IMG/VR virus record: IMGVR_UViG_3300042346_000126
From: an uncultured virus (IMG/VR IMGVR_UViG_3300042346_000126)
Lineage: Duplodnaviria; Heunggongvirae; Uroviricota; Caudoviricetes
Direction: 5' to 3' (one strand)
Length of the DNA stretch: 64,000 bases
Shown one piece after another: positions 556 through 46,377 of the stretch; the stretch's first letter is position 1; every line of letters starts with the position of its first letter. The position numbers and the translations under genes were made by a program. Under the pieces are notes generated by a model. It was not told the DNA's origin and did no database searches. It worked only from the letters and a program-made list of their open reading frames with translations.

Positions 556-2709
556 ATGACCGACCGTACGGATATCCAGCGCCTGCTGGACAATCTCCCA
601 AAGATGTCGCATTTGGACATGGCGAATACACTGGCCTTGCTGGATGAGTTGGAAGAGCGTAAGCGTACGATGCTGGCGCAGAGCGAGTTTCTTGCGTTCA
701 TTGCGGCAGTTGACCCTGCCTATAAGTTTGGTACGCACTTGAAGCGATTGGGTGCGCTTCTGACGCAAGTTGAGTTGGGCGAGAAGGATCGAGTAGCCGT
801 GTCGATGGCCCCCCGGTTTGGTAAGAGCCAGATGATCTCCATTTACTATCCTGCGTGGTACTTGGGTAAACACCCCGATCACAAGATGATCGTAGCCTCC
901 CATACGGTTGACCTAGCTGTGGATATGGCGCGTAAGGTTCGTAACCTGATGCAAACCCCAGACTACAAACGGATATTTCCGGGCGTAGCTATTGCTGCCG
1001 ATGCCAAGGCTGCAGGCAAGTGGAACACGACTAAAGGTGGAGAGGTTTACGCCACAGGCGTAGGTGGAGCATTGGCGGGCCGGGGGGCCGACCTGTGTCT
1101 GACGCCAGCAACCCTCGTAGAGACGCTAGAGCGCGGGTTTGTACCCTGCGGTACGGTGCAGGTTGGGGAGAGCTTACGTAGCTGGCATGGTTGGGCTAAA
1201 GTATTAAAGCGTATAACCCCCGAGCACTCCGCCACAGTTACAGTAGCAGGCAGACTAAACGTATCCGCAGAGCATCCGATCTGGACTTGCAACCGTGGGT
1301 GGGTACCTGCAATAGAAGTGGTACCGACGGATATATTGTGGACGACTTCATTTTGGGATCGGGATGTGCCCCGAGCAAGCCCTACAGGCTCCACGAATGA
1401 GCCACAATACACAACGTATTTCTCGGTCCAACTTGGATGGCTCCGACGTGCAGGAGTACACCTCCTTAGCCGATGCGGCTCGCTCAGTGTCGCTAGAAAA
1501 CTACGAAACCGTGAAGAAGGCTATTTGGTACGCCTTAAAGCGGGGCTCCAAGTCATCGCAGGGTTTTTGCTGGGCGTACGCCTCGCCGGTGCAACCCGAA
1601 TAGATCGTCACGAAGCCCGTCCCTTTGTCAACTTTATGGTAGACGGGGACAATACCTTTGTAGCTGATACGATTTTGACACATAATTGTATCATCGATGA
1701 CCCGATTTCGGAGCAAGATATTAAGAGTGGGAATACCACGAGCCTCGACGGTGTTTACGATTGGTTCCGCAATGGCTTGCGTACACGGCTTATGCCGGGC
1801 GGGGCCATAGTGATCTTACATACCAGATGGCACCAGCGGGACCTGATTGGTCGCTTGCTGAAGGATACTGCGCTGAACGAAGACGGCGACAAGTACGATA
1901 TGTTCGAGTTTCCGGCCATTTTGGAGACGCCAAACCCGCTGGCAGACCCAAACAACGCGGAATTTGACCCTGATGCCCCCTCTACCCTGCAGAAATCACT
2001 GTGGCCGGAGCAGTGGAGCTTGGAATCCCTCCTGCGGACCAAGGCGTCGATGCCTTCATGGCAGTGGAACGCCCAATACCAGCAGAATCCGACCGCGCAA
2101 GAAGCTGCGATCATCAAACGAGACCATATTAAGTGGTGGCCCCATGAGAAACCTCCTGCTGTGGACTACATTGTGCAGTCATTTGATACTGCGCTCACCA
2201 CAAAAACCCGTTCTGACTACTCTGTGTGCCAAACATGGGGTGTATGGAAGAATGAAGAGGATATAGACAACGTAATCTTGCTAAATTGTGTAGTAGGTAA
2301 GTGGGAATTCCCTGAATTGAAGCAAATGGCCCTGCAGCAGGCCAAAGATTGGGAGCCCGATAGCATAATTGTCGAGGCTAAGGCCAGCGGTCAGCCCCTG
2401 ATTGACGAAATGCGGCGCTCCGGCTTGTTTGTGCAGGACTACAGCCCCGGTAAGGGCCAAGATAAGATAGCAAGACTGAATTCTGTCAGCGATATGTTTA
2501 TGAGCGGGCAGGTATGGTTCCCGGAAACGGGATGGGCTACCAGCGTGGTAGAGGAGTTGTTGGCGTTCCCTAGCGGGGAGCATGATGACCAAGTGGATAC
2601 CTTGACGCTGGCCCTCATTCGGATTCGCAAGGGCGGGCTCTTGCGGCTAACGTCCGACCACGGGGATAATTCAGACTTCCAAGCGGCGCGTAAAGCCGCT
2701 TACTACTAA
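556..2709 (+). CDS. terL: terminase large subunit, intein-containing
   Basis: Walker A-like APRFGKS, Walker B (GADL)/CIIDDP split by an intein, TRWH motif, C-terminal RNase H-like nuclease (SFDTA...HDDQVD). Confidence 0.95.
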   Translation: MTDRTDIQRLLDNLPKMSHLDMANTLALLDELEERKRTMLAQSEFLAFIAAVDPAYKFGTHLKRLGALLTQVELGEKDRVAVSMAPRFGKSQMISIYYPAWYLGKHPDHKMIVASHTVDLAVDMARKVRNLMQTPDYKRIFPGVAIAADAKAAGKWNTTKGGEVYATGVGGALAGRGADLCLTPATLVETLERGFVPCGTVQVGESLRSWHGWAKVLKRITPEHSATVTVAGRLNVSAEHPIWTCNRGWVPAIEVVPTDILWTTSFWDRDVPRASPTGSTNEPQYTTYFSVQLGWLRRAGVHLLSRCGSLSVARKLRNREEGYLVRLKAGLQVIAGFLLGVRLAGATRIDRHEARPFVNFMVDGDNTFVADTILTHNCIIDDPISEQDIKSGNTTSLDGVYDWFRNGLRTRLMPGGAIVILHTRWHQRDLIGRLLKDTALNEDGDKYDMFEFPAILETPNPLADPNNAEFDPDAPSTLQKSLWPEQWSLESLLRTKASMPSWQWNAQYQQNPTAQEAAIIKRDHIKWWPHEKPPAVDYIVQSFDTALTTKTRSDYSVCQTWGVWKNEEDIDNVILLNCVVGKWEFPELKQMALQQAKDWEPDSIIVEAKASGQPLIDEMRRSGLFVQDYSPGKGQDKIARLNSVSDMFMSGQVWFPETGWATSVVEELLAFPSGEHDDQVDTLTLALIRIRKGGLLRLTSDHGDNSDFQAARKAAYY
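1096..1686 (+). mobile_element. intein (197 aa) in terminase large subunit
   Basis: Block A CLTPATLV, block B SAEHPIWT, blocks F/G FVNFMVDGDNTFVADTILTHN followed by Cys+1. Removal restores GRGADL-CIIDDP. Confidence 0.92.
1364..1603 (+). CDS. NUMOD1-like HTH DNA-binding ORF or remnant nested in the +1 frame of the terminase intein
   Basis: QEYTSLADAARSV...IWYALKRGSKSSQGFCWAY resembles the C-terminal NUMOD1 domain of homing endonucleases. Confidence 0.6.
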   Translation: MCPEQALQAPRMSHNTQRISRSNLDGSDVQEYTSLADAARSVSLENYETVKKAIWYALKRGSKSSQGFCWAYASPVQPE

Positions 2710-2721
2710 CGAAAGATATTT

Positions 2722-5211
2722 ATGGCAACCTCAAGTATGTCCCCTTCCCTAACACCTGCACCTATGGGGCTTGGGGCCATTATGGATACTCTCGAAAACA
2801 CTGAACCGGATCTGGAGATTGAGATTGAGAACCCTGACCGCGTGACGCTGGCAGATGGTAGCGTAGAGATTACGCTGATTCCAGAGCCCACCAAGGGTGA
2901 GGACTTTGGGGATAACCTCGCTGAGTTCATGGACGAGGGCGAGTTGACTACCCTCGCAGGTGACCTGCTGGCGCTGGTGGATGCCGATATCAACTCCCGT
3001 AAGGACTGGGTTGACGCTTATGTGAAAGGCCTTGAGGTCTTGGGTATGAAGTACGACGAGCGTACAGAGCCTTGGAGTGGGGCGTGTGGCGTTTATTCCA
3101 CAGTGCTGACAGAAGCGGCTATCCGGTTCCAAGCGGAGATGGTTACAGAGACGTTCCCTGCCGCAGGTCCGGTTAAAACTTCCATCGTGGGGGCATCGAC
3201 CAAGGATACGGAAGCGGCAGCCGCCCGGGTTCAGGAGGACATGAACTACCAGATTCTGGAGAAGATGCCTGAGTATCGGCCAGAGCATGAGCGCATGTTG
3301 TTTAACCTCGGCCTGTCGGGTTCTGCCTTCAAGAAGGTGTACAACGACCCCTCGCTACGTAGGCAAGTGGCTCTGTTCGTACCCGCAGAAGATGTGATTA
3401 TTCCTTATGGCGCGTCGAGTTCGCAGACTGCAGAGCGGGTTACGCATGTCATGCGCAAGACCGAGAACGAGGTTCGCAAGCTGCAGGTAGCAGGGTTCTA
3501 CCGGGACATCGAGCTTGGCGATCCGGTCCATATCACTACGGACGTTGAGAAGAAGAAAGCCGAAGAGCAGGGTTACAGCGTCACGGACGACGACCGGTTC
3601 CAGTTGCTTGAGATTCACGTAGACTGGGACATGCCCGGGTACGAGGATGAGGACGGCATTGCATTGCCGTATGTGGTGACTATTGAGCGCGGCACCAGCG
3701 AAGTGCTGGCTATTCGCAGGAATTGGGAAGAAGACGATGTAACCAAGCTGAAACGTCAGCACTTCGTACAGTACACCTACATCCCCGGCTTCGGTGCTTA
3801 TGGCTTTGGCTTGGTCAACCTGATTGGGGGCTACGCCCGCGCAGGCACTTCCCTGATCCGTCAGTTGATCGACGCAGGCTCGCTGTCTAACTTGCCGGGT
3901 GGCATGAAAACTCGTGGCTTGCGCATCAAGGGCGATGACACTCCCATCGCTCCGGGCGAGTTCCGGGATGTGGATGTCGCCTCAGGGACACTGCGTGACA
4001 GTATCATGCCGCTGCCGTACAAGGAGCCTAGCCAGACACTGCTGGCCTTGTTGAACCAGATTACCGACGAAGCCCGCCGCTTGGGCGCTATCAGTGACAT
4101 GAAAATCGCTGACATGTCGGGCAACGCCCCGGTAGGTACAACGCTGGCGCTGTTGGAGCGCACGCTGAAGACCATGAGTGCTGTGCAGGCCCGGGTTCAT
4201 GCGTCCATGAAGCAAGAGTTCAAGCTGCTGGCCGCGATCATTGGAGACAACGCTCCTGATGAGTATGAATACGACCCTGCTAAAGGCGACCGTAAAGCCA
4301 AGCGCGGCGACTACTCTATGGTGGAGGTTATCCCCGTCAGCGATCCCAACAGCACCACAATGGCGCAGCGGATCATGCAGTACCAAGCGGCTATTCAGTT
4401 GGCCCAAGGCGCTCCGCAGATTTATGACCTGCCTCAGTTGCACCGTCAGATGCTTGAAGTATTGGGTATCAAGAACGTTGAGAAGCTTGTGCCGGTTGAC
4501 GATGACTTGAAGCCACGCGACCCGATCAGCGAGAACATGGCGTTCCTTAACGGTAAGCCAGTCAAGGCGTTCATCTACCAAGATCACGACGCTCATATCG
4601 CTGTTCACACAACGTTTATGAAAGACCCCATGATTGGGCAGACGATGGGGCAGAACCCAATGGCGCAGCAGATGATGGCGGCGACGATGGCGCATATCTC
4701 TGAGCACTTGGCCTTCGCATACCGCCGCAAGATCGAGGAGCAGATGGGCGTTACGATGCCCGCACCTGATTCAGAGTTGCCGGAGGACGTGGAAGTTCAA
4801 CTGGCCCGCCTGACGGCCCAAGCCGCGACGCAACTACTGCAACTAAATATGGCACAAGCGCAACAGGCACAAGCGCAACAGGCGGCGCAAGACCCGATGA
4901 TGCAACTCCAACAAGCCGAATTGCAACTCAAAGGCAAGGAAGTTGAGCTTAAGGGCCAGAAGATTCAGGGTGACCTGCAGATCAAGCAAGCGGAACTGCA
5001 ACTCAAAGCGCAGGAAATGGCTAGCAAGCAGGGCGAGGACCCAGCGCTGGCTCAACAACGCCATGCTCAGACCATGCAGCAGACCCAGCAAGCCCACGAG
5101 CAACAGCTTACACATGCGCAGCAGGCGCAGCAACAGAAGATGGCCGCAGCAGTTCAGGCCAACCAACTCAAGCAGCAGCTAGCGGCACAGAAAGCTAGGA
5201 CACCAACATGA
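2722..5211 (+). CDS. portal protein (P22 gp1-like)
   Basis: 829 aa after terL, GSAFKKVY motif, Gln-rich coiled-coil C-terminus. Confidence 0.88.
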   Translation: MATSSMSPSLTPAPMGLGAIMDTLENTEPDLEIEIENPDRVTLADGSVEITLIPEPTKGEDFGDNLAEFMDEGELTTLAGDLLALVDADINSRKDWVDAYVKGLEVLGMKYDERTEPWSGACGVYSTVLTEAAIRFQAEMVTETFPAAGPVKTSIVGASTKDTEAAAARVQEDMNYQILEKMPEYRPEHERMLFNLGLSGSAFKKVYNDPSLRRQVALFVPAEDVIIPYGASSSQTAERVTHVMRKTENEVRKLQVAGFYRDIELGDPVHITTDVEKKKAEEQGYSVTDDDRFQLLEIHVDWDMPGYEDEDGIALPYVVTIERGTSEVLAIRRNWEEDDVTKLKRQHFVQYTYIPGFGAYGFGLVNLIGGYARAGTSLIRQLIDAGSLSNLPGGMKTRGLRIKGDDTPIAPGEFRDVDVASGTLRDSIMPLPYKEPSQTLLALLNQITDEARRLGAISDMKIADMSGNAPVGTTLALLERTLKTMSAVQARVHASMKQEFKLLAAIIGDNAPDEYEYDPAKGDRKAKRGDYSMVEVIPVSDPNSTTMAQRIMQYQAAIQLAQGAPQIYDLPQLHRQMLEVLGIKNVEKLVPVDDDLKPRDPISENMAFLNGKPVKAFIYQDHDAHIAVHTTFMKDPMIGQTMGQNPMAQQMMAATMAHISEHLAFAYRRKIEEQMGVTMPAPDSELPEDVEVQLARLTAQAATQLLQLNMAQAQQAQAQQAAQDPMMQLQQAELQLKGKEVELKGQKIQGDLQIKQAELQLKAQEMASKQGEDPALAQQRHAQTMQQTQQAHEQQLTHAQQAQQQKMAAAVQANQLKQQLAAQKARTPT

Positions 5212-42171: not shown

Positions 42172-42199
42172 ATTATACATAGTCTAGTCTGAGTGTCAA
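42172..42199 (-). promoter_or_regulatory. sigma70 promoter
   Basis: TTGACA-16 bp-TATAAT on the minus strand. Confidence 0.75.
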
Positions 42200-44676
42200 G
42201 CTATCTCTTGTCGATATAAATCAACTAGGCCTTGGTGGAGATCAACCTTACCGTCTAACATAGCGTACACCCGACGCTCCACGGGGCTACCCTGCAGCCG
42301 AACTACCGTTACTTTATTGACCTGCCCTGCCCTGTGCGCCCGAGCATTGCCTTGCAGATACAACTCAGCGGAGGGCACTGGCCCCCACCACACTACCGTA
42401 TCGGCTTTGGTAAGCGTGATCCCGTGCGCGGCTGCTTGTGGGACTAGTAAGAGCGCCTTGGGGCGCTCCTCTGTCTGAAACCGTTTGATGGACTCTGCCC
42501 GCTGCCCTGCCGACACGCCACCGTGGATAGACTCCGTAGCAATACCTGCCTTGGCAAGGGCTTGCTCCAGCATTTCTAGGGCATGGCGAAACGGCACAAA
42601 CACAATGACCTTGTGGTCGGTTTGTTCAATCACATCCAGTAGCTCATTCACCCGGTTGCTTACGTCAAACTCAATGACTTCCCTATCCGTCGTATAGGCG
42701 GCCCCACAGTTATGGACAATGAGGTGCTCTCCGTTATGCCCGCGAACCACGAACCTACTACGGGGGCCACAATTTAAGAGGTCGTAAACCCGTTCCGTCC
42801 CGGCGTAGTGAGGGCTTTCTCCAGCGGCCAACCGTAACGTTTCAGTCGTGCACTTAGGGTCACCGTCTTTAGCCCGTAGGCCCGTGCGGCCTGCGCCACA
42901 GTCATACGCCCTTTTGGCGTATCTATCCAACGGTTGAACCGTGTATTGTTGGCTTGCTCCGTAGCCGTAGCCCATCGACAATTCTTTGGGCTGTACGGCC
43001 CCTCTACGTTGATCCGATCCAGCGTCAAGCTCTCGGCGTATCCCTCCTGCATGTCGGCCCAAAAGTTCTCGAAAGAATCCGCCCAATGTTTGCACACAGT
43101 TATCCCACGCGCTCCATAGTTTCGGTAATCTTTGTCTTTTGGGTCTAAACATCTCCGCCGCATACCGGACCATATGCGATACGGGCGTGCCTGTGTCATT
43201 TTGTGCGTTTCGTTCCCGTGGTGGCACCCACAACTTCTTGGATGCACGCGCTTCGTATTGCGAAGATACTGGCTCTGCCGCTCCACAATCGCTCCGCAAT
43301 CGCACTGGCACGCCCATTTTGCACACTGAGTGCCGCGCAGGGCTGATACTGCTCGCGCCAGTACCGTCAGGAAACCGAACCTTTGCCCAGTCAAGTCTAA
43401 TGCCCGACGAGCGGGATTTGAGTATGTCATCTGCCGTTGCCCACCCATCATTTGTAAGTACCTTATGCTCTGCGGTCATACGAACCCCGGCAATGGCAAC
43501 CAGAGGCTTTACCCCTCTGAATATTGCCCCTTGCTGGGATACCCATTCCACTCCATCCCAAACGTGATGCTGCGGAGTAACAAGTTGGATTGGTATCCAG
43601 CCTGCGTCAGTTAAGACTTCGGTATTGTACGCTATACATGATATCTGCAATAATTTATTCAACAGCCCCGCTGCATTGACCGCGGTAATCTCCGCACCTG
43701 CAGCAACAGCCACCATAGACTTGCGGACCTCCTCGTAGTATTTCATTTGCTGTACGGTTAACGGTACATCCCGAGTGGTGTACAACAAGTCAGGGAGGTC
43801 TAAGCACTCAGCCTTGGTGAAGCGTATCGCGGGCTGCAGTACCTTGAACACGGTATCCTGTGCGGTAACTTTAGGAGCCCATTTGAAGTTGGTGATTTTG
43901 TACATAACCAAGTCGCGGAACGCCCCAAAGAACTTTGGCACTACGCTGGGGTTGACCAGCTTAGCCAGCCCATATGCATCCGTAGGCGACTGCGAGGCAG
44001 GGGTGCCGGTCATAAGCCAGAGCCGGGTCGTGGGCTTAATCAGGCTGTGCAAAGCCTTCCAACGGTCTGTTGTAGTGCTCTTTACTGCAGTTGCTTCATC
44101 TACGATAACAAGATCGAACCCACCAGCCGCAAGCTCTTCGCGTACTACCTTCACCCCGTCAAAGTTGATGATGACGAACTCGTAGTCTCCGCTAATCAGT
44201 TGCTGCCGTTTGGCTTTACTACCTGTAGCAATTGCCACGGTTCTGTGCATAAGCGTACGGAACAAGTCAGCCCGCCATGCGGTGTCCATGATGGACACGG
44301 GACAGACGATAAGCACCCGCTTGATCTCGCCTTGCAGCATGAGGTAATCCGCAGCCCATGCCGCTGCACTGGTCTTGCCCGTCCCCGCCTCAGAGAGCAC
44401 AAGGCACCGTGGGTGGGTAGCGAGGAACGCTGCGGTAGTACGTTGATGGTCGAATGGGGTATACACCCCGGGCCACTTGTACCTGCCCGTTATGGGGTGC
44501 GGTACGTTTTTGATCTGCAGGTTGCGCAGAAGCTTCGCCTCTACATGGCCCCAGTTAACGAGGATTTTGGCTTGGTCGCCGTTGCGGGCGAGCACCTTGC
44601 TTTTCGGAATCAATGCAGTGATCTGGTCTGCCTTGCGGGTCACAAACTGTAGCGCCCGATTGTCTATTATCTGCAC
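42196..44676 (-). CDS. SNF2-family helicase, intein-containing
   Basis: EAGTGKT, VDEAT, MTGTP, HGITLT, QGNARAHRAGQ; GTG start at 44676 with AAGGA RBS. Confidence 0.92.
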   Translation of the reverse strand: MQIIDNRALQFVTRKADQITALIPKSKVLARNGDQAKILVNWGHVEAKLLRNLQIKNVPHPITGRYKWPGVYTPFDHQRTTAAFLATHPRCLVLSEAGTGKTSAAAWAADYLMLQGEIKRVLIVCPVSIMDTAWRADLFRTLMHRTVAIATGSKAKRQQLISGDYEFVIINFDGVKVVREELAAGGFDLVIVDEATAVKSTTTDRWKALHSLIKPTTRLWLMTGTPASQSPTDAYGLAKLVNPSVVPKFFGAFRDLVMYKITNFKWAPKVTAQDTVFKVLQPAIRFTKAECLDLPDLLYTTRDVPLTVQQMKYYEEVRKSMVAVAAGAEITAVNAAGLLNKLLQISCIAYNTEVLTDAGWIPIQLVTPQHHVWDGVEWVSQQGAIFRGVKPLVAIAGVRMTAEHKVLTNDGWATADDILKSRSSGIRLDWAKVRFPDGTGASSISPARHSVCKMGVPVRLRSDCGAAEPVSSQYEARASKKLWVPPRERNAQNDTGTPVSHMVRYAAEMFRPKRQRLPKLWSAWDNCVQTLGGFFRELLGRHAGGIRRELDAGSDQRRGAVQPKELSMGYGYGASQQYTVQPLDRYAKRAYDCGAGRTGLRAKDGDPKCTTETLRLAAGESPHYAGTERVYDLLNCGPRSRFVVRGHNGEHLIVHNCGAAYTTDREVIEFDVSNRVNELLDVIEQTDHKVIVFVPFRHALEMLEQALAKAGIATESIHGGVSAGQRAESIKRFQTEERPKALLLVPQAAAHGITLTKADTVVWWGPVPSAELYLQGNARAHRAGQVNKVTVVRLQGSPVERRVYAMLDGKVDLHQGLVDLYRQEIA
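42709..43638 (-). mobile_element. intein (310 aa) in SNF2 helicase
   Basis: Block A CIAYNTEVLTDAGW, block B MTAEHKVLT, blocks F/G VYDLLNCG...LIVHN followed by Cys+1. Removal restores LLQIS-CGAAY. Confidence 0.93.
42774..43430 (-). CDS. HNH-like homing endonuclease nested in the +1 frame inside the helicase intein
   Basis: DLTGQRFGFLTV, CQCDCG, SCGC, WSGMRRRC, YGARGITVC, LDRINVEGPYSPKNCRWAT, C-terminal HTH. Alternative start at 43451. Confidence 0.88.
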   Translation of the reverse strand: MTYSNPARRALDLTGQRFGFLTVLARAVSALRGTQCAKWACQCDCGAIVERQSQYLRNTKRVHPRSCGCHHGNETHKMTQARPYRIWSGMRRRCLDPKDKDYRNYGARGITVCKHWADSFENFWADMQEGYAESLTLDRINVEGPYSPKNCRWATATEQANNTRFNRWIDTPKGRMTVAQAARAYGLKTVTLSARLKRYGWPLEKALTTPGRNGFTTS

Positions 44677-44696
44677 GGGAAATCCTTTCACGGACG

Positions 44697-44726
44697 AAAA
44701 AAGCACGGTAGGGTGAACTACCGTGC
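44697..44726 (-). terminator. rho-independent terminator just upstream of the helicase gene
   Basis: GCACGGTAG-6 nt-CTACCGTGC-TTTTTT on the minus strand. Confidence 0.7.
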
Positions 44727-44780
44727 AAAAACCAACACTCAGGAGAGACGCCAAATGACAAGCGTCTCCGGGATACTACT

Positions 44781-45053
44781 CTACTTAGCGGCTTCCCGCT
44801 TGCTTGTTTGCGACTTCAGCGTCCCGGTCTTGGTGCGGGAGAAGCTTCGGTTGTTCTTTGCGGGTACGGCTCTAAGGTTACTTAGGCTCGTAGCGCCCCC
44901 TTTGGACATAGCCTTCTTATGGTCTACGTCTACGTTATCTGGCAGGGTGCCATGAGCCTTTTCGTAGATGCGACGCGCCCTATGCCGCTCTGCTTGAGCC
45001 TTAAGCTGCTTTGGCGTGCCTTGATAATTTTTATACTCGCTATTTATAATCAC
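44781..45053 (-). CDS. small HNH endonuclease
   Basis: DVDHKKAMSKGG...SNLRAV...NNRS. Confidence 0.8.
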   Translation of the reverse strand: MIINSEYKNYQGTPKQLKAQAERHRARRIYEKAHGTLPDNVDVDHKKAMSKGGATSLSNLRAVPAKNNRSFSRTKTGTLKSQTSKREAAK

Positions 45054-45730
45054 GCGGTTTCGCCATGATCGTTCTCCTTTTCTCCTTGCACATCGAACAA
45101 GGTACGTGGTTTGGTAGTCATAGGTTCCGGTCTAATTCTACGTTCCTGCGGGGGCGTACCCCATTTATCTTTAGGCCACCCCGCAGCTATGCGGTGGGTA
45201 AGGGTCGAATACTTTATGCCTAAAGCGATTGCCAATTCTGGATACGTTTTACCGTCCACAAGGGGTACGTTACGTCGATTCTTTGACTGAGCAGATCGCA
45301 GTATCCAGCGACAGTTAGCGGGTTCGTAAGAGCCCTCCGAAGAAATCCTATCTATAGACCCTAGCGCCCCATATGGGGAGGGCCCCATCGAACTATAAAA
45401 CCCTTCAAAGGTATCCCATGCAGCGCATACGTATATGCCACGCCCCCCATACAGCGCATAGTGTGGGTGCTTGGTATACAGGCAACGTTTTCGCATAGCA
45501 GTCCAAACCCTAAATTCAAAGCTATGGGTAAGGCCATGGGTAATCGAGGCTAGATAGGGCCTGCAGGCCATACACCCAGACTTTGCCGCTACCAAAACAG
45601 ATTTACGAACCGTTGCGGCACTGCCACAAGAACAATTGCATACGTAATACTGTTCGTTCCCTCGCTTATCCGCTACGGACAATACTTTCCACTTGCCGTA
45701 TACACGTCCGATTACTATTTGTGTTCGCAT
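45050..45730 (-). CDS. free-standing HNH-like homing endonuclease (same family as 42774-43430)
   Basis: CNCSCG, WTAMRKRC, YGGRGIYVC, IDRISSEGSYEPANCRW. Confidence 0.85.
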   Translation of the reverse strand: MRTQIVIGRVYGKWKVLSVADKRGNEQYYVCNCSCGSAATVRKSVLVAAKSGCMACRPYLASITHGLTHSFEFRVWTAMRKRCLYTKHPHYALYGGRGIYVCAAWDTFEGFYSSMGPSPYGALGSIDRISSEGSYEPANCRWILRSAQSKNRRNVPLVDGKTYPELAIALGIKYSTLTHRIAAGWPKDKWGTPPQERRIRPEPMTTKPRTLFDVQGEKENDHGETA

Positions 45731-46377
45731 GCGTCCTCCGATAAAGGGCAAAACTTACAAAGTCCTGAGGGGCGAGCGTTCCATACCCCTGCTTCTAAGG
45801 CAGCCTCAATCATACTTGCATGGCCTGCCCACTTGGAGAAAATTTCAGGTAGCTGAGCGCGTGTGTACTCTGCTTTGACTGCATCCTTGGCAACCACGAA
45901 TAGAAGGACACCCTTAACGGTGTTGATCTTTGGGTAGTGTGCCATGACCATAGCGGCCATAAGCTCTAGCTGATCTGTATCTGCATAGCGACTGGACTTG
46001 CCAGTCTTGTAATCTACGACTCGCGCAATGCCTTTGTCGTGGTTAAGTGCGAGATAGTCGGGCAACCCGCGGAACCATACATCCGGGGCAAAAAATTCGC
46101 ATGGTGTGAAGTCTTTACGAATCCCGAGTTTGAGTTCGCATTTGATCTCTCCGGGGATTTTGGTGAGAGGTTCCACGAAAGGCAGGTAGTGTTGAAAAGC
46201 TTCTGGTAGTGGGGTGCCGTCTTTGACATAATTCTCGAATGCAGTATGCACCGCCGTTCCGTAAAGGGTAGCTGTGGTGTCGCCTTGTTTGTATTGCTTC
46301 AGAATACGAACCACATGGTACTTGCGAGCGCAATTTTGGAAATCCTTGATCGCGCTATAGGAAAATGCGAGTGCCAT
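45715..46377 (-). CDS. PD-(D/E)XK RecB/Cas4-like exonuclease
   Basis: SYSAIKDFQNC, GTAVH, PD...DYKTGK, QL, CKFCP..C. Confidence 0.88.
   Translation of the reverse strand: MALAFSYSAIKDFQNCARKYHVVRILKQYKQGDTTATLYGTAVHTAFENYVKDGTPLPEAFQHYLPFVEPLTKIPGEIKCELKLGIRKDFTPCEFFAPDVWFRGLPDYLALNHDKGIARVVDYKTGKSSRYADTDQLELMAAMVMAHYPKINTVKGVLLFVVAKDAVKAEYTRAQLPEIFSKWAGHASMIEAALEAGVWNARPSGLCKFCPLSEDACEHK

Follow-up and report, generated by a model that had tools for sequence, protein, structure and literature searches.

A 64,000-nucleotide (nt) stretch of viral DNA (IMG/VR IMGVR_UViG_3300042346_000126; hereafter the window, meaning the whole stretch that was analysed) carries on its minus strand a long open reading frame (ORF) for a helicase precursor of the SNF2 family, within which lie a 310-amino-acid (aa) intein and, in the +1 frame of the central linker of that intein, a second complete ORF (Table 1). 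This arrangement is very probably a class-1 intein in a phage SNF2 helicase whose homing endonuclease is a separate gene overprinted in +1 on the linker. The host ORF matched the DNA helicase family phrog_62 in PHROG (E 1.6e-99), and Pfam recognised SNF2-rel_dom at aa 115-370 (E 1.3e-19) and Helicase_C at aa 702-810 (E 5.9e-17); host aa 371-701 were covered by no Pfam family. The intervening intein starts with CIAYN and finishes with LIVHN, followed by CGAAY. A preliminary description of the locus, made from the letters alone, had given exactly these limits and had reported intact splicing blocks A, B, F, and G; the intein carries C1, T55xxH58, VYDLLN, and HN/C (here and below a slash marks an intein boundary). 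Its account of the second ORF held equally well, with an ATG of its own giving 225 aa from position 43451 or 218 aa from a second ATG at 43430, a stop within the L-L-N codons of VYDLLN (block F), and both frames free of stops across the overlap; the third frame contains 16 stops there.

Table 1. Positions of the helicase gene, the intein, the nested gene and their neighbour in the window, with the parts of the split relative L036 in the coordinates of its own contig. pLDDT, predicted local distance difference test score of the AlphaFold2 model.
Feature	Coordinates	Strand	Remarks
SNF2-family helicase precursor ORF	42196..44754	-	852 aa counted from first TTG; real start may be further downstream
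N-extein, host aa 1-372	43639..44754	-	Ends ...KLLQIS; protein 96% identical to the G001 helicase, which has no intein
Intein, 310 aa, frame 0, host aa 373-682	42709..43638	-	C1 ... T55xxH58 ... VYDLLN ... HN, then Cys at +1
N-terminal splicing (Hint) half, intein aa 1-90	43369..43638	-	Block mean pLDDT 84-97; conserved blocks
Frame-0 linker, intein aa 91-280	42799..43368	-	Predicted translated filler; pLDDT <50 mostly; no Pfam family; conservation equal to that of a non-coding frame
C-terminal splicing half, intein aa 281-310, blocks F and G	42709..42798	-	pLDDT 93-95; VYDLLNCGPRxRFVV...IVHN conserved
Nested putative homing-endonuclease gene, +1 frame, 225 aa	42774..43451	-	Alternative ATG 43430; stop TAA 42776-42774
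Shine-Dalgarno-like AAGG	43461..43464	-	9 nt before ATG 43451, inside block-B codons H-K-V
C-extein, host aa 683-852	42196..42708	-	Begins CGAAYTTDRE; 82% protein identity to G001
Free-standing paralog of the nested endonuclease, 233 aa	45050..45751	-	phrog_374, E 8.9e-40; context, outside the intein
L036: PolA-N and intein-N	950..3004		Ends at a stop
L036: free nuclease ORF	2986..3624
L036: intein-C and PolA-C	3486..3926

Conservation and modelling both pointed to a splicing domain in the flanking parts of the element. Residues C1, T55, H58, D286, and N310 were invariant in all 24 aligned related inteins, which provides the block B TxxH motif of class-1 inteins (T55, H58) and, at the C-terminal end (...IVHN/CGAAY), the invariant N310 with a Cys at +1. 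All 32 inteins of the first nested sample (defined below) likewise begin with Cys, end in N then Cys, and have no stop in the host frame. The frame-0 AlphaFold2 model was confident in both halves (residues 1-90 and 281-310; Table 1), and its top Foldseek matches were solved inteins, namely the Ssp DnaB mini-intein (6frg, E 6.3e-4), Npu DnaE, and Mtu RecA, with a probability of 1.00. The element is inserted in frame at a conserved site for which intein-less homologs exist, in the nearest relative compared (G001) and in contigs of sequencing runs X4 and X16. No NCBIfam family matched the intein, the nested nuclease, or its paralog. Positions 42709..43638 are a class-1 intein in a phage SNF2 helicase, predicted to be capable of splicing, and its splicing halves (about 90 and 30 aa) are conserved and have a Hint fold.

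The absence of stops from the intein frame departed strongly from chance. When the nuclease protein was fixed and its codons were redrawn synonymously from local codon usage (20,000 Monte Carlo draws), 10.98 host-frame stops were expected, none of the 20,000 draws was stop-free, and the probability of finding none was about 2e-6, which agrees with the earlier suggestion that stops had been removed from this frame. The free-standing paralog has 15 stops in the equivalent (-1) frame. Among 26 unique nested genes, which formed the set for all analyses of frame selection, host-frame stops numbered 0 in 26/26 and third-frame stops 7-25, and nine free-standing control genes contained 1-67 stops in the same relative frame. 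A host-frame stop arises only where a T-ending nuclease codon precedes a codon starting with AA, AG, or GA. In the nested genes, NNT codons were found before such codons in 0/1452 cases, compared with 1015/4533 (22.4%) elsewhere; this bias was absent from the nine controls (182/574 versus 444/1351).

Selection was judged in the same set by diversity at codon positions and by identity in each frame. Diversity at nuclease codon positions 1, 2, and 3 was 0.42, 0.38, and 0.61, the least variable being position 2, which is position 3 of the host codons. Over 325 pairs, the nuclease frame had a mean pairwise aa identity of 0.471, compared with 0.264 for the host frame and 0.263 for the non-coding third frame, and nuclease-frame identity exceeded host-frame identity in 324 of the pairs. 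These patterns, which the preliminary description had predicted, indicate that the +1 frame is under purifying selection and that frame 0 is merely kept stop-free. Together with the avoidance of NNT, the identities in each frame indicate that frame 0 is held open by synonymous codon choice in the nuclease gene and is otherwise unconstrained.

The frame-0 linker could alternatively be a functional domain in its own right, such as a splicing regulator, in which case the dual coding would serve two proteins. A few linker columns are indeed invariant in frame 0 (L174, R190, L193, and L220), and a single helix was predicted at residues 171-195. These conserved residues, however, lie under the best-conserved motif of the nuclease, SFENFWADMG; the model fell below a pLDDT of 50 at residues 94-170, 172-179, 194-235, and 237-277; no Pfam or NCBIfam family matched; host third positions vary least; and host-frame identity equals that of the third frame. 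We therefore regard a linker domain as very improbable, and the earlier statement that no recognisable domain lies between blocks B and F in the intein frame was borne out. The roughly 185 aa between the splicing halves are, according to the model and the alignments, unstructured filler in frame 0.

The layout was widespread among relatives. A first sample, collected by nuclease similarity, comprised 80 viral-contig loci, one of which is identical to the window. The nuclease was nested between intein N and C blocks in 32 of the 80, always +1 to the intein frame and always intact with a start codon; in 47 it stood alone, and no intein blocks were found there at E up to 1e-3; and one (L036) was irregular. 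A second sample was collected by splicing blocks alone, which gave at least 590 pattern hits and at least 393 confirmed relatives, of which the best 80 (70 unique) were examined. In these best 80 the nuclease lay in +1 at 79 loci and in frame 0 or +2 at none, and the remaining locus, L161, carried the sole mini-intein (135 aa). Both frames were open in 75/80; L149 has five host-frame stops, and L108, L141, and L143 each have one nuclease-frame stop (3/79), so the +1 ORF was not generally broken in relatives, as the preliminary description had allowed it might be. In-frame forms or more mini forms may occur among the remaining relatives beyond the best 80.

These relatives also bear on the reading that two compensating assembly or sequencing indels had shifted an in-frame nuclease domain out of register. 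Contigs from two runs of other studies, X2 (19,435 nt) and X10 (6,829 nt), span positions 42605-43750 with 0 gaps, and the +1 relation recurs in 79/80 related inteins. This artefact was rejected, its probability being practically nil.

The family is not confined to one gene or site. Pfam assigned 23 host ORFs to SNF2 helicases (8, with the site KLLQIS/CG) and PolA (15), and the insertion sites of 75 nested inteins fell into the classes CxQ (38), helicase CG (16), CEN (13), CxE (4), and others (4). A protein search with the frame-0 intein, informative at the protein level only, gave 533 hits (E up to 0.001), which lie in helicases and PolA polymerases. In a set of 50,697 phage records, megablast of the helicase gene found no match, and tblastn of the helicase matched 1706 records, of which 0 covered at least 80% of the query; the matches were confined to the exteins, and the intein is therefore common to no annotated phage record in that set.

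Three relatives differ in form. L161 (2210-2614) is a mini-intein without a nuclease gene in PolA, at GGKL/C...HN/CENITQ. L036 (950-3926) holds the same family in a split form of the 'fractured gene' type. L010 (252-3602) encodes a related 1117-aa helicase with a second intein upstream of the overprinted one, and this second intein was recognised by Pfam at aa 196-485 (Intein_splicing, Hint_2, PT-HINT).

The +1 protein matched phrog_374 (E 1.1e-59) and phrog_3377 (E 3e-52), both annotated as HNH endonuclease, a label that is a library annotation and not an assayed function. It shares 34% identity (E 4e-32) with the free-standing paralog located 1.6 kb upstream, and its M8 aligned with M1 of that paralog. 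Its AlphaFold2 model, built from an alignment of 63 relatives, had a mean pLDDT of 90.5. The N-terminal 60 residues were modelled as a small beta barrel resembling Tudor, SH3, or KOW domains (Z about 4), and the C-terminus was helical. The helix-turn-helix that had been proposed there is thus represented by helices in the model and by a sub-threshold Pfam match to HTH_psq (18.1 bits versus a cut-off of 20.4). R139, Y146, N150, and W153 were invariant in 63/63 relatives, and C94, C113, C151, and N162 nearly so. Sequence and model together indicate that the +1 ORF is a real gene, an intact and well-folding member of an otherwise free-standing phage endonuclease family.

Presence and absence of the intein among close relatives are consistent with mobility. 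G001 has the helicase without the intein, and query aa 18-373 and 683-851 match it in adjoining segments; its junction reads KLLQIS-AGCVY-ATDRE, compared with KLLQIS/CGAAY-TTDRE in the window. Nucleotide identity to G001 was 0.68 in the 60-nt junction bin versus mostly 0.85-1.0 across the N-extein. Run X4 contains an intein-bearing contig (depth 35.6) beside an intein-less contig (depth 50.5); the latter skips 42687-43643 and has 25 other letters there, unlike the flanking extein codons of the window. Run X16, an RNA library, yielded one intein-less contig and one 429-nt contig inside the nuclease gene (42909-43303), which were not taken as evidence of expression because RNA libraries can contain DNA and the contigs are strandless.

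A FastTree phylogeny of 95 unique nucleases (76 nested, 19 free) required two changes between the nested and free states, whereas shuffled labels required 17.5 on average and none of 500 shuffles was as low. Insertion-site classes changed 11 times, whereas 200 shuffles gave 33.75 changes on average and never fewer than 28. This pattern fits one or very few captures, after which intein and nuclease may have spread as a unit with occasional jumps to new sites; given the quick tree method and uneven sampling, it is a lead and not proof.

We propose the following course of events. Ribosomes would translate the full 852-aa precursor in frame 0, and the Hint domain would excise the 310-aa intein, filler included, to give an active helicase. 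Other ribosomes would initiate internally at ATG 43451 or 43430 behind the Shine-Dalgarno (SD)-like site, yielding a free nuclease of 218-225 aa. This nuclease would cleave intein-less helicase alleles in mixed infections, and repair would transfer both the intein and the nuclease gene to the cut alleles. Most likely, the composite arose by entry of a free-standing endonuclease gene into a mini-intein, and it may later have moved to further sites in genes for helicases and PolA.

Internal initiation is the likeliest route of nuclease production to judge from the sequences. With one to three candidate starts counted per gene, an SD core (GGAG, GAGG, AGGA, or AAGG at -16..-5) preceded a candidate ATG or GTG in 25/26 nested genes, compared with 13.1% (652/4987) of the other ATG and GTG triplets in the same loci. 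In the window, ATG 43451 lies in N-D-G-W codons. The nuclease could instead be a fused intein domain if ribosomes underwent programmed frameshifting, into +1 once block B had been read and out of it again ahead of block F, as the two open frames on the same strand would permit. Yet a stop interrupts the nuclease frame 0-24 codons upstream of the start, and in L025, L040, and L041 that stop stands directly before the ATG, which excludes entry by frameshifting. The nuclease also ends at its own stop, in or after block F at a varying place, and its N-terminus aligns with the Met of free-standing paralogs, in addition to the SD cores noted above. Frameshifting is accordingly an extremely improbable explanation.

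Several observations weigh against an overprinted homing endonuclease as the explanation of the locus. Splicing, internal initiation, and cleavage are all predicted. The SD motifs are not independent evidence because they lie in codons that frame 0 also conserves, and the count in their favour allowed more than one start per gene. The best 80 of at least 393 relatives include one mini-intein and no in-frame form, and the origin may have run in either direction, from invasion of a mini-intein or from a fused domain that was frameshifted. The tree was built by FastTree alone with nested rows partly drawn from the intein-directed sample, and splicing-domain and nuclease distances correlated weakly (Spearman 0.27, over non-independent pairs). 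The family reads LDR where HNH_3 enzymes have DH, as the preliminary description had noted for the window, and the invariant R139 (63/63) occupies the place of the catalytic His of canonical HNH enzymes, so that this His is missing. The +1 protein had no Pfam HNH match at E up to 0.1. The best VIA neighbour of the core (residues 76-165) was PacI (3m7k_A; 75 residues, root mean square deviation 2.4, 17% identity), a middling likeness whose Z of 6.2 is within the range that can reflect a common arrangement. The earlier proposal of an HNH-like core was partly borne out, by the PHROG families and the PacI likeness but not by any Pfam HNH model. Against the PDB, Foldseek with the nuclease model gave nothing at E up to 0.001 and a sequence search gave 0 matches at E up to 1.

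The Arg in place of the His, the missing Pfam match, and the failure to match a solved structure by sequence would also suit a +1 protein that is no longer a nuclease and serves as a DNA-binding, regulatory, or helper protein, in which case the intein would not home by its own enzyme. The invariant and near-invariant residues listed above, however, form an active-site pattern rather than one of decay, and PacI is itself described as an active HNH enzyme that has Tyr instead of His (PMC5714182). The intein is polymorphic in presence and absence among near-identical phages, and nuclease lineages follow insertion sites, as expected of an enzyme that sets its own target. Loss of nuclease function is accordingly unlikely, and we retain the overprinted homing endonuclease.

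Other endonuclease-like genes were found around the helicase. Of the paralog at 45050-45751, G001 has only the last 20 codons (95% identical; G001:C1:41699-41758), and another family member with one TAG inside lies directly downstream of the intein-less helicase (G001:C1:39383-39781). Endonuclease genes near the helicase thus vary in presence and absence, and this variation could account for the C-extein being less similar (82% identity). A 90-aa ORF (44781-45053) that separates the paralog from the helicase matched phrog_4590 (E 2.4e-18) and, below threshold, HNH_3 (22.3 bits versus a cut-off of 24.8). Its end shares 4 nt with the start region of the paralog, and it may be one more small nuclease-like gene, the third in this cluster. 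The match of the G001 helicase (G001:C1:40281-41400) to that of the window falls into two segments that overlap (query aa 1-26 and 18-373), and a TGA lies inside, which suggests a frame change or a different start near the 5' end of the G001 gene.

Intein endonucleases on the same strand and out of frame have been reported in preprints of 2025-26, which cite Gorbalenya 1998; one of them (bioRxiv 10.64898/2026.09.14.751524) credits that work ('Non-canonical inteins') with the first proposal. The features of such non-canonical inteins were all found here, namely an endonuclease ORF in another frame over an open host frame, selection on the alternate frame, and an unfolded linker with a folded alternate-frame product. 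An actinophage preprint counts 63 non-canonical inteins among 784 and calls these architectures rare. As in the window, it describes a same-strand, out-of-frame endonuclease ORF between the splicing blocks, an in-frame stretch without recognisable structure, and a nuclease akin to free-standing phage endonucleases, and it proposes the invasion of an intein by a free-standing gene. Its nuclease is endonuclease VII-like and lies in frame 3, whereas ours belongs to phrog_374, has a PacI-like core, and lies in +1. Its hosts are the DNA polymerase, minor capsid, terminase, and thymidylate synthase genes of actinophages, compared here with the SNF2 helicase and PolA genes of phages from freshwater and sediment, and the layout is rare there versus 79 of the best 80 of at least 393 relatives here.

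A second parallel is the cyanobacterial dnaX intein with a LAGLIDADG enzyme in a +2 ORF (bioRxiv 10.64898/2026.09.14.751524). That preprint describes, as in the window, a disordered linker with a confident alternate-frame model, purifying selection on the alternate frame with a relaxed host frame, an SD before the nested start, mini-intein relatives, and intein-free and intein-bearing alleles in one population (X4 in our case). Unlike the window, that intein resides in a cellular chromosome, uses LAGLIDADG, and employs the +2 frame; it occupies a single insertion site, whereas the family described here occupies at least five site classes in at least two genes. The preliminary description had raised the possibility of an unnamed intein class. 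This suggestion does not stand, because the out-of-frame layout is already in print for other nuclease families. Our literature search, whose coverage excluded preprint supplements that possibly list overlapping families, turned up no report of this nuclease family in an intein of an SNF2 helicase or PolA. The helicase/PolA intein family is a new, very abundant case of a recently described intein layout.

The family has several implications, the general points being not new in kind and already made by the 2025-26 preprints. Annotation pipelines call a single 852-aa 'helicase' here and overlook both the intein and the nuclease gene. A separate overlapping endonuclease in 79/80 inteins suggests that a stable two-gene partnership without fusion is possible, a point relevant to the 'splicing first, endonuclease later' view of how inteins arose. 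The simple rule of no NNT before AA, AG, or GA codons (0/1452) illustrates how a second frame may be maintained by synonymous choice alone. Site-specific enzymes with an unusual predicted active site could come from the nuclease family, and the apparent ability of the linker to accommodate about 185 aa of arbitrary sequence is relevant to intein engineering.

Beyond non-canonical inteins, phage methylases contain the ShiLan domain and further hidden HNH insertions that lie out of frame (PMC11855218). These insertions resemble the window in having a stop-free host ORF and a proposed internal initiation. Unlike the window, where a complete Hint domain flanks the insert, they lack a splicing domain, and ShiLan is presumed to be retained in the host protein. 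Fractured genes (Dassa et al. 2009, PMC2677866) share a free-standing endonuclease gene at the place of the endonuclease domain, with its end overlapping the downstream intein part. That form is matched by the relative L036 and not by the window, where the host frame runs through the nuclease gene without a stop and the intein is therefore contiguous, unlike the split of Dassa 2009. PacI (PDB 3m7k/3ldy) resembles the nuclease in lacking the catalytic His of the His-Me finger. It is described as an active His-Me finger enzyme that uses Tyr in place of His (PMC5714182), for which the invariant Y146 of the nuclease family is a putative counterpart; PacI differs in being a rare-cutting restriction enzyme rather than a homing enzyme, at 17% sequence identity. 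We tentatively suggest, while holding the composite claim somewhat doubtful, that overprinting is the normal state of the helicase/PolA intein family and not a rare accident. No other lineage of dual-coding inteins would then come near the family in size and diversity (at least 393 viral contigs, with at least five site classes spread over SNF2 helicase, PolA, and other genes), and it would hold contiguous, split (L036), and mini (L161) outcomes of one capture, with a nuclease that may be the first homing endonuclease of a His-less, PacI-like, Tyr-dependent branch of the His-Me finger enzymes. If this is true, the model of Dassa in which an endonuclease invades a mini-intein becomes directly testable within one family.

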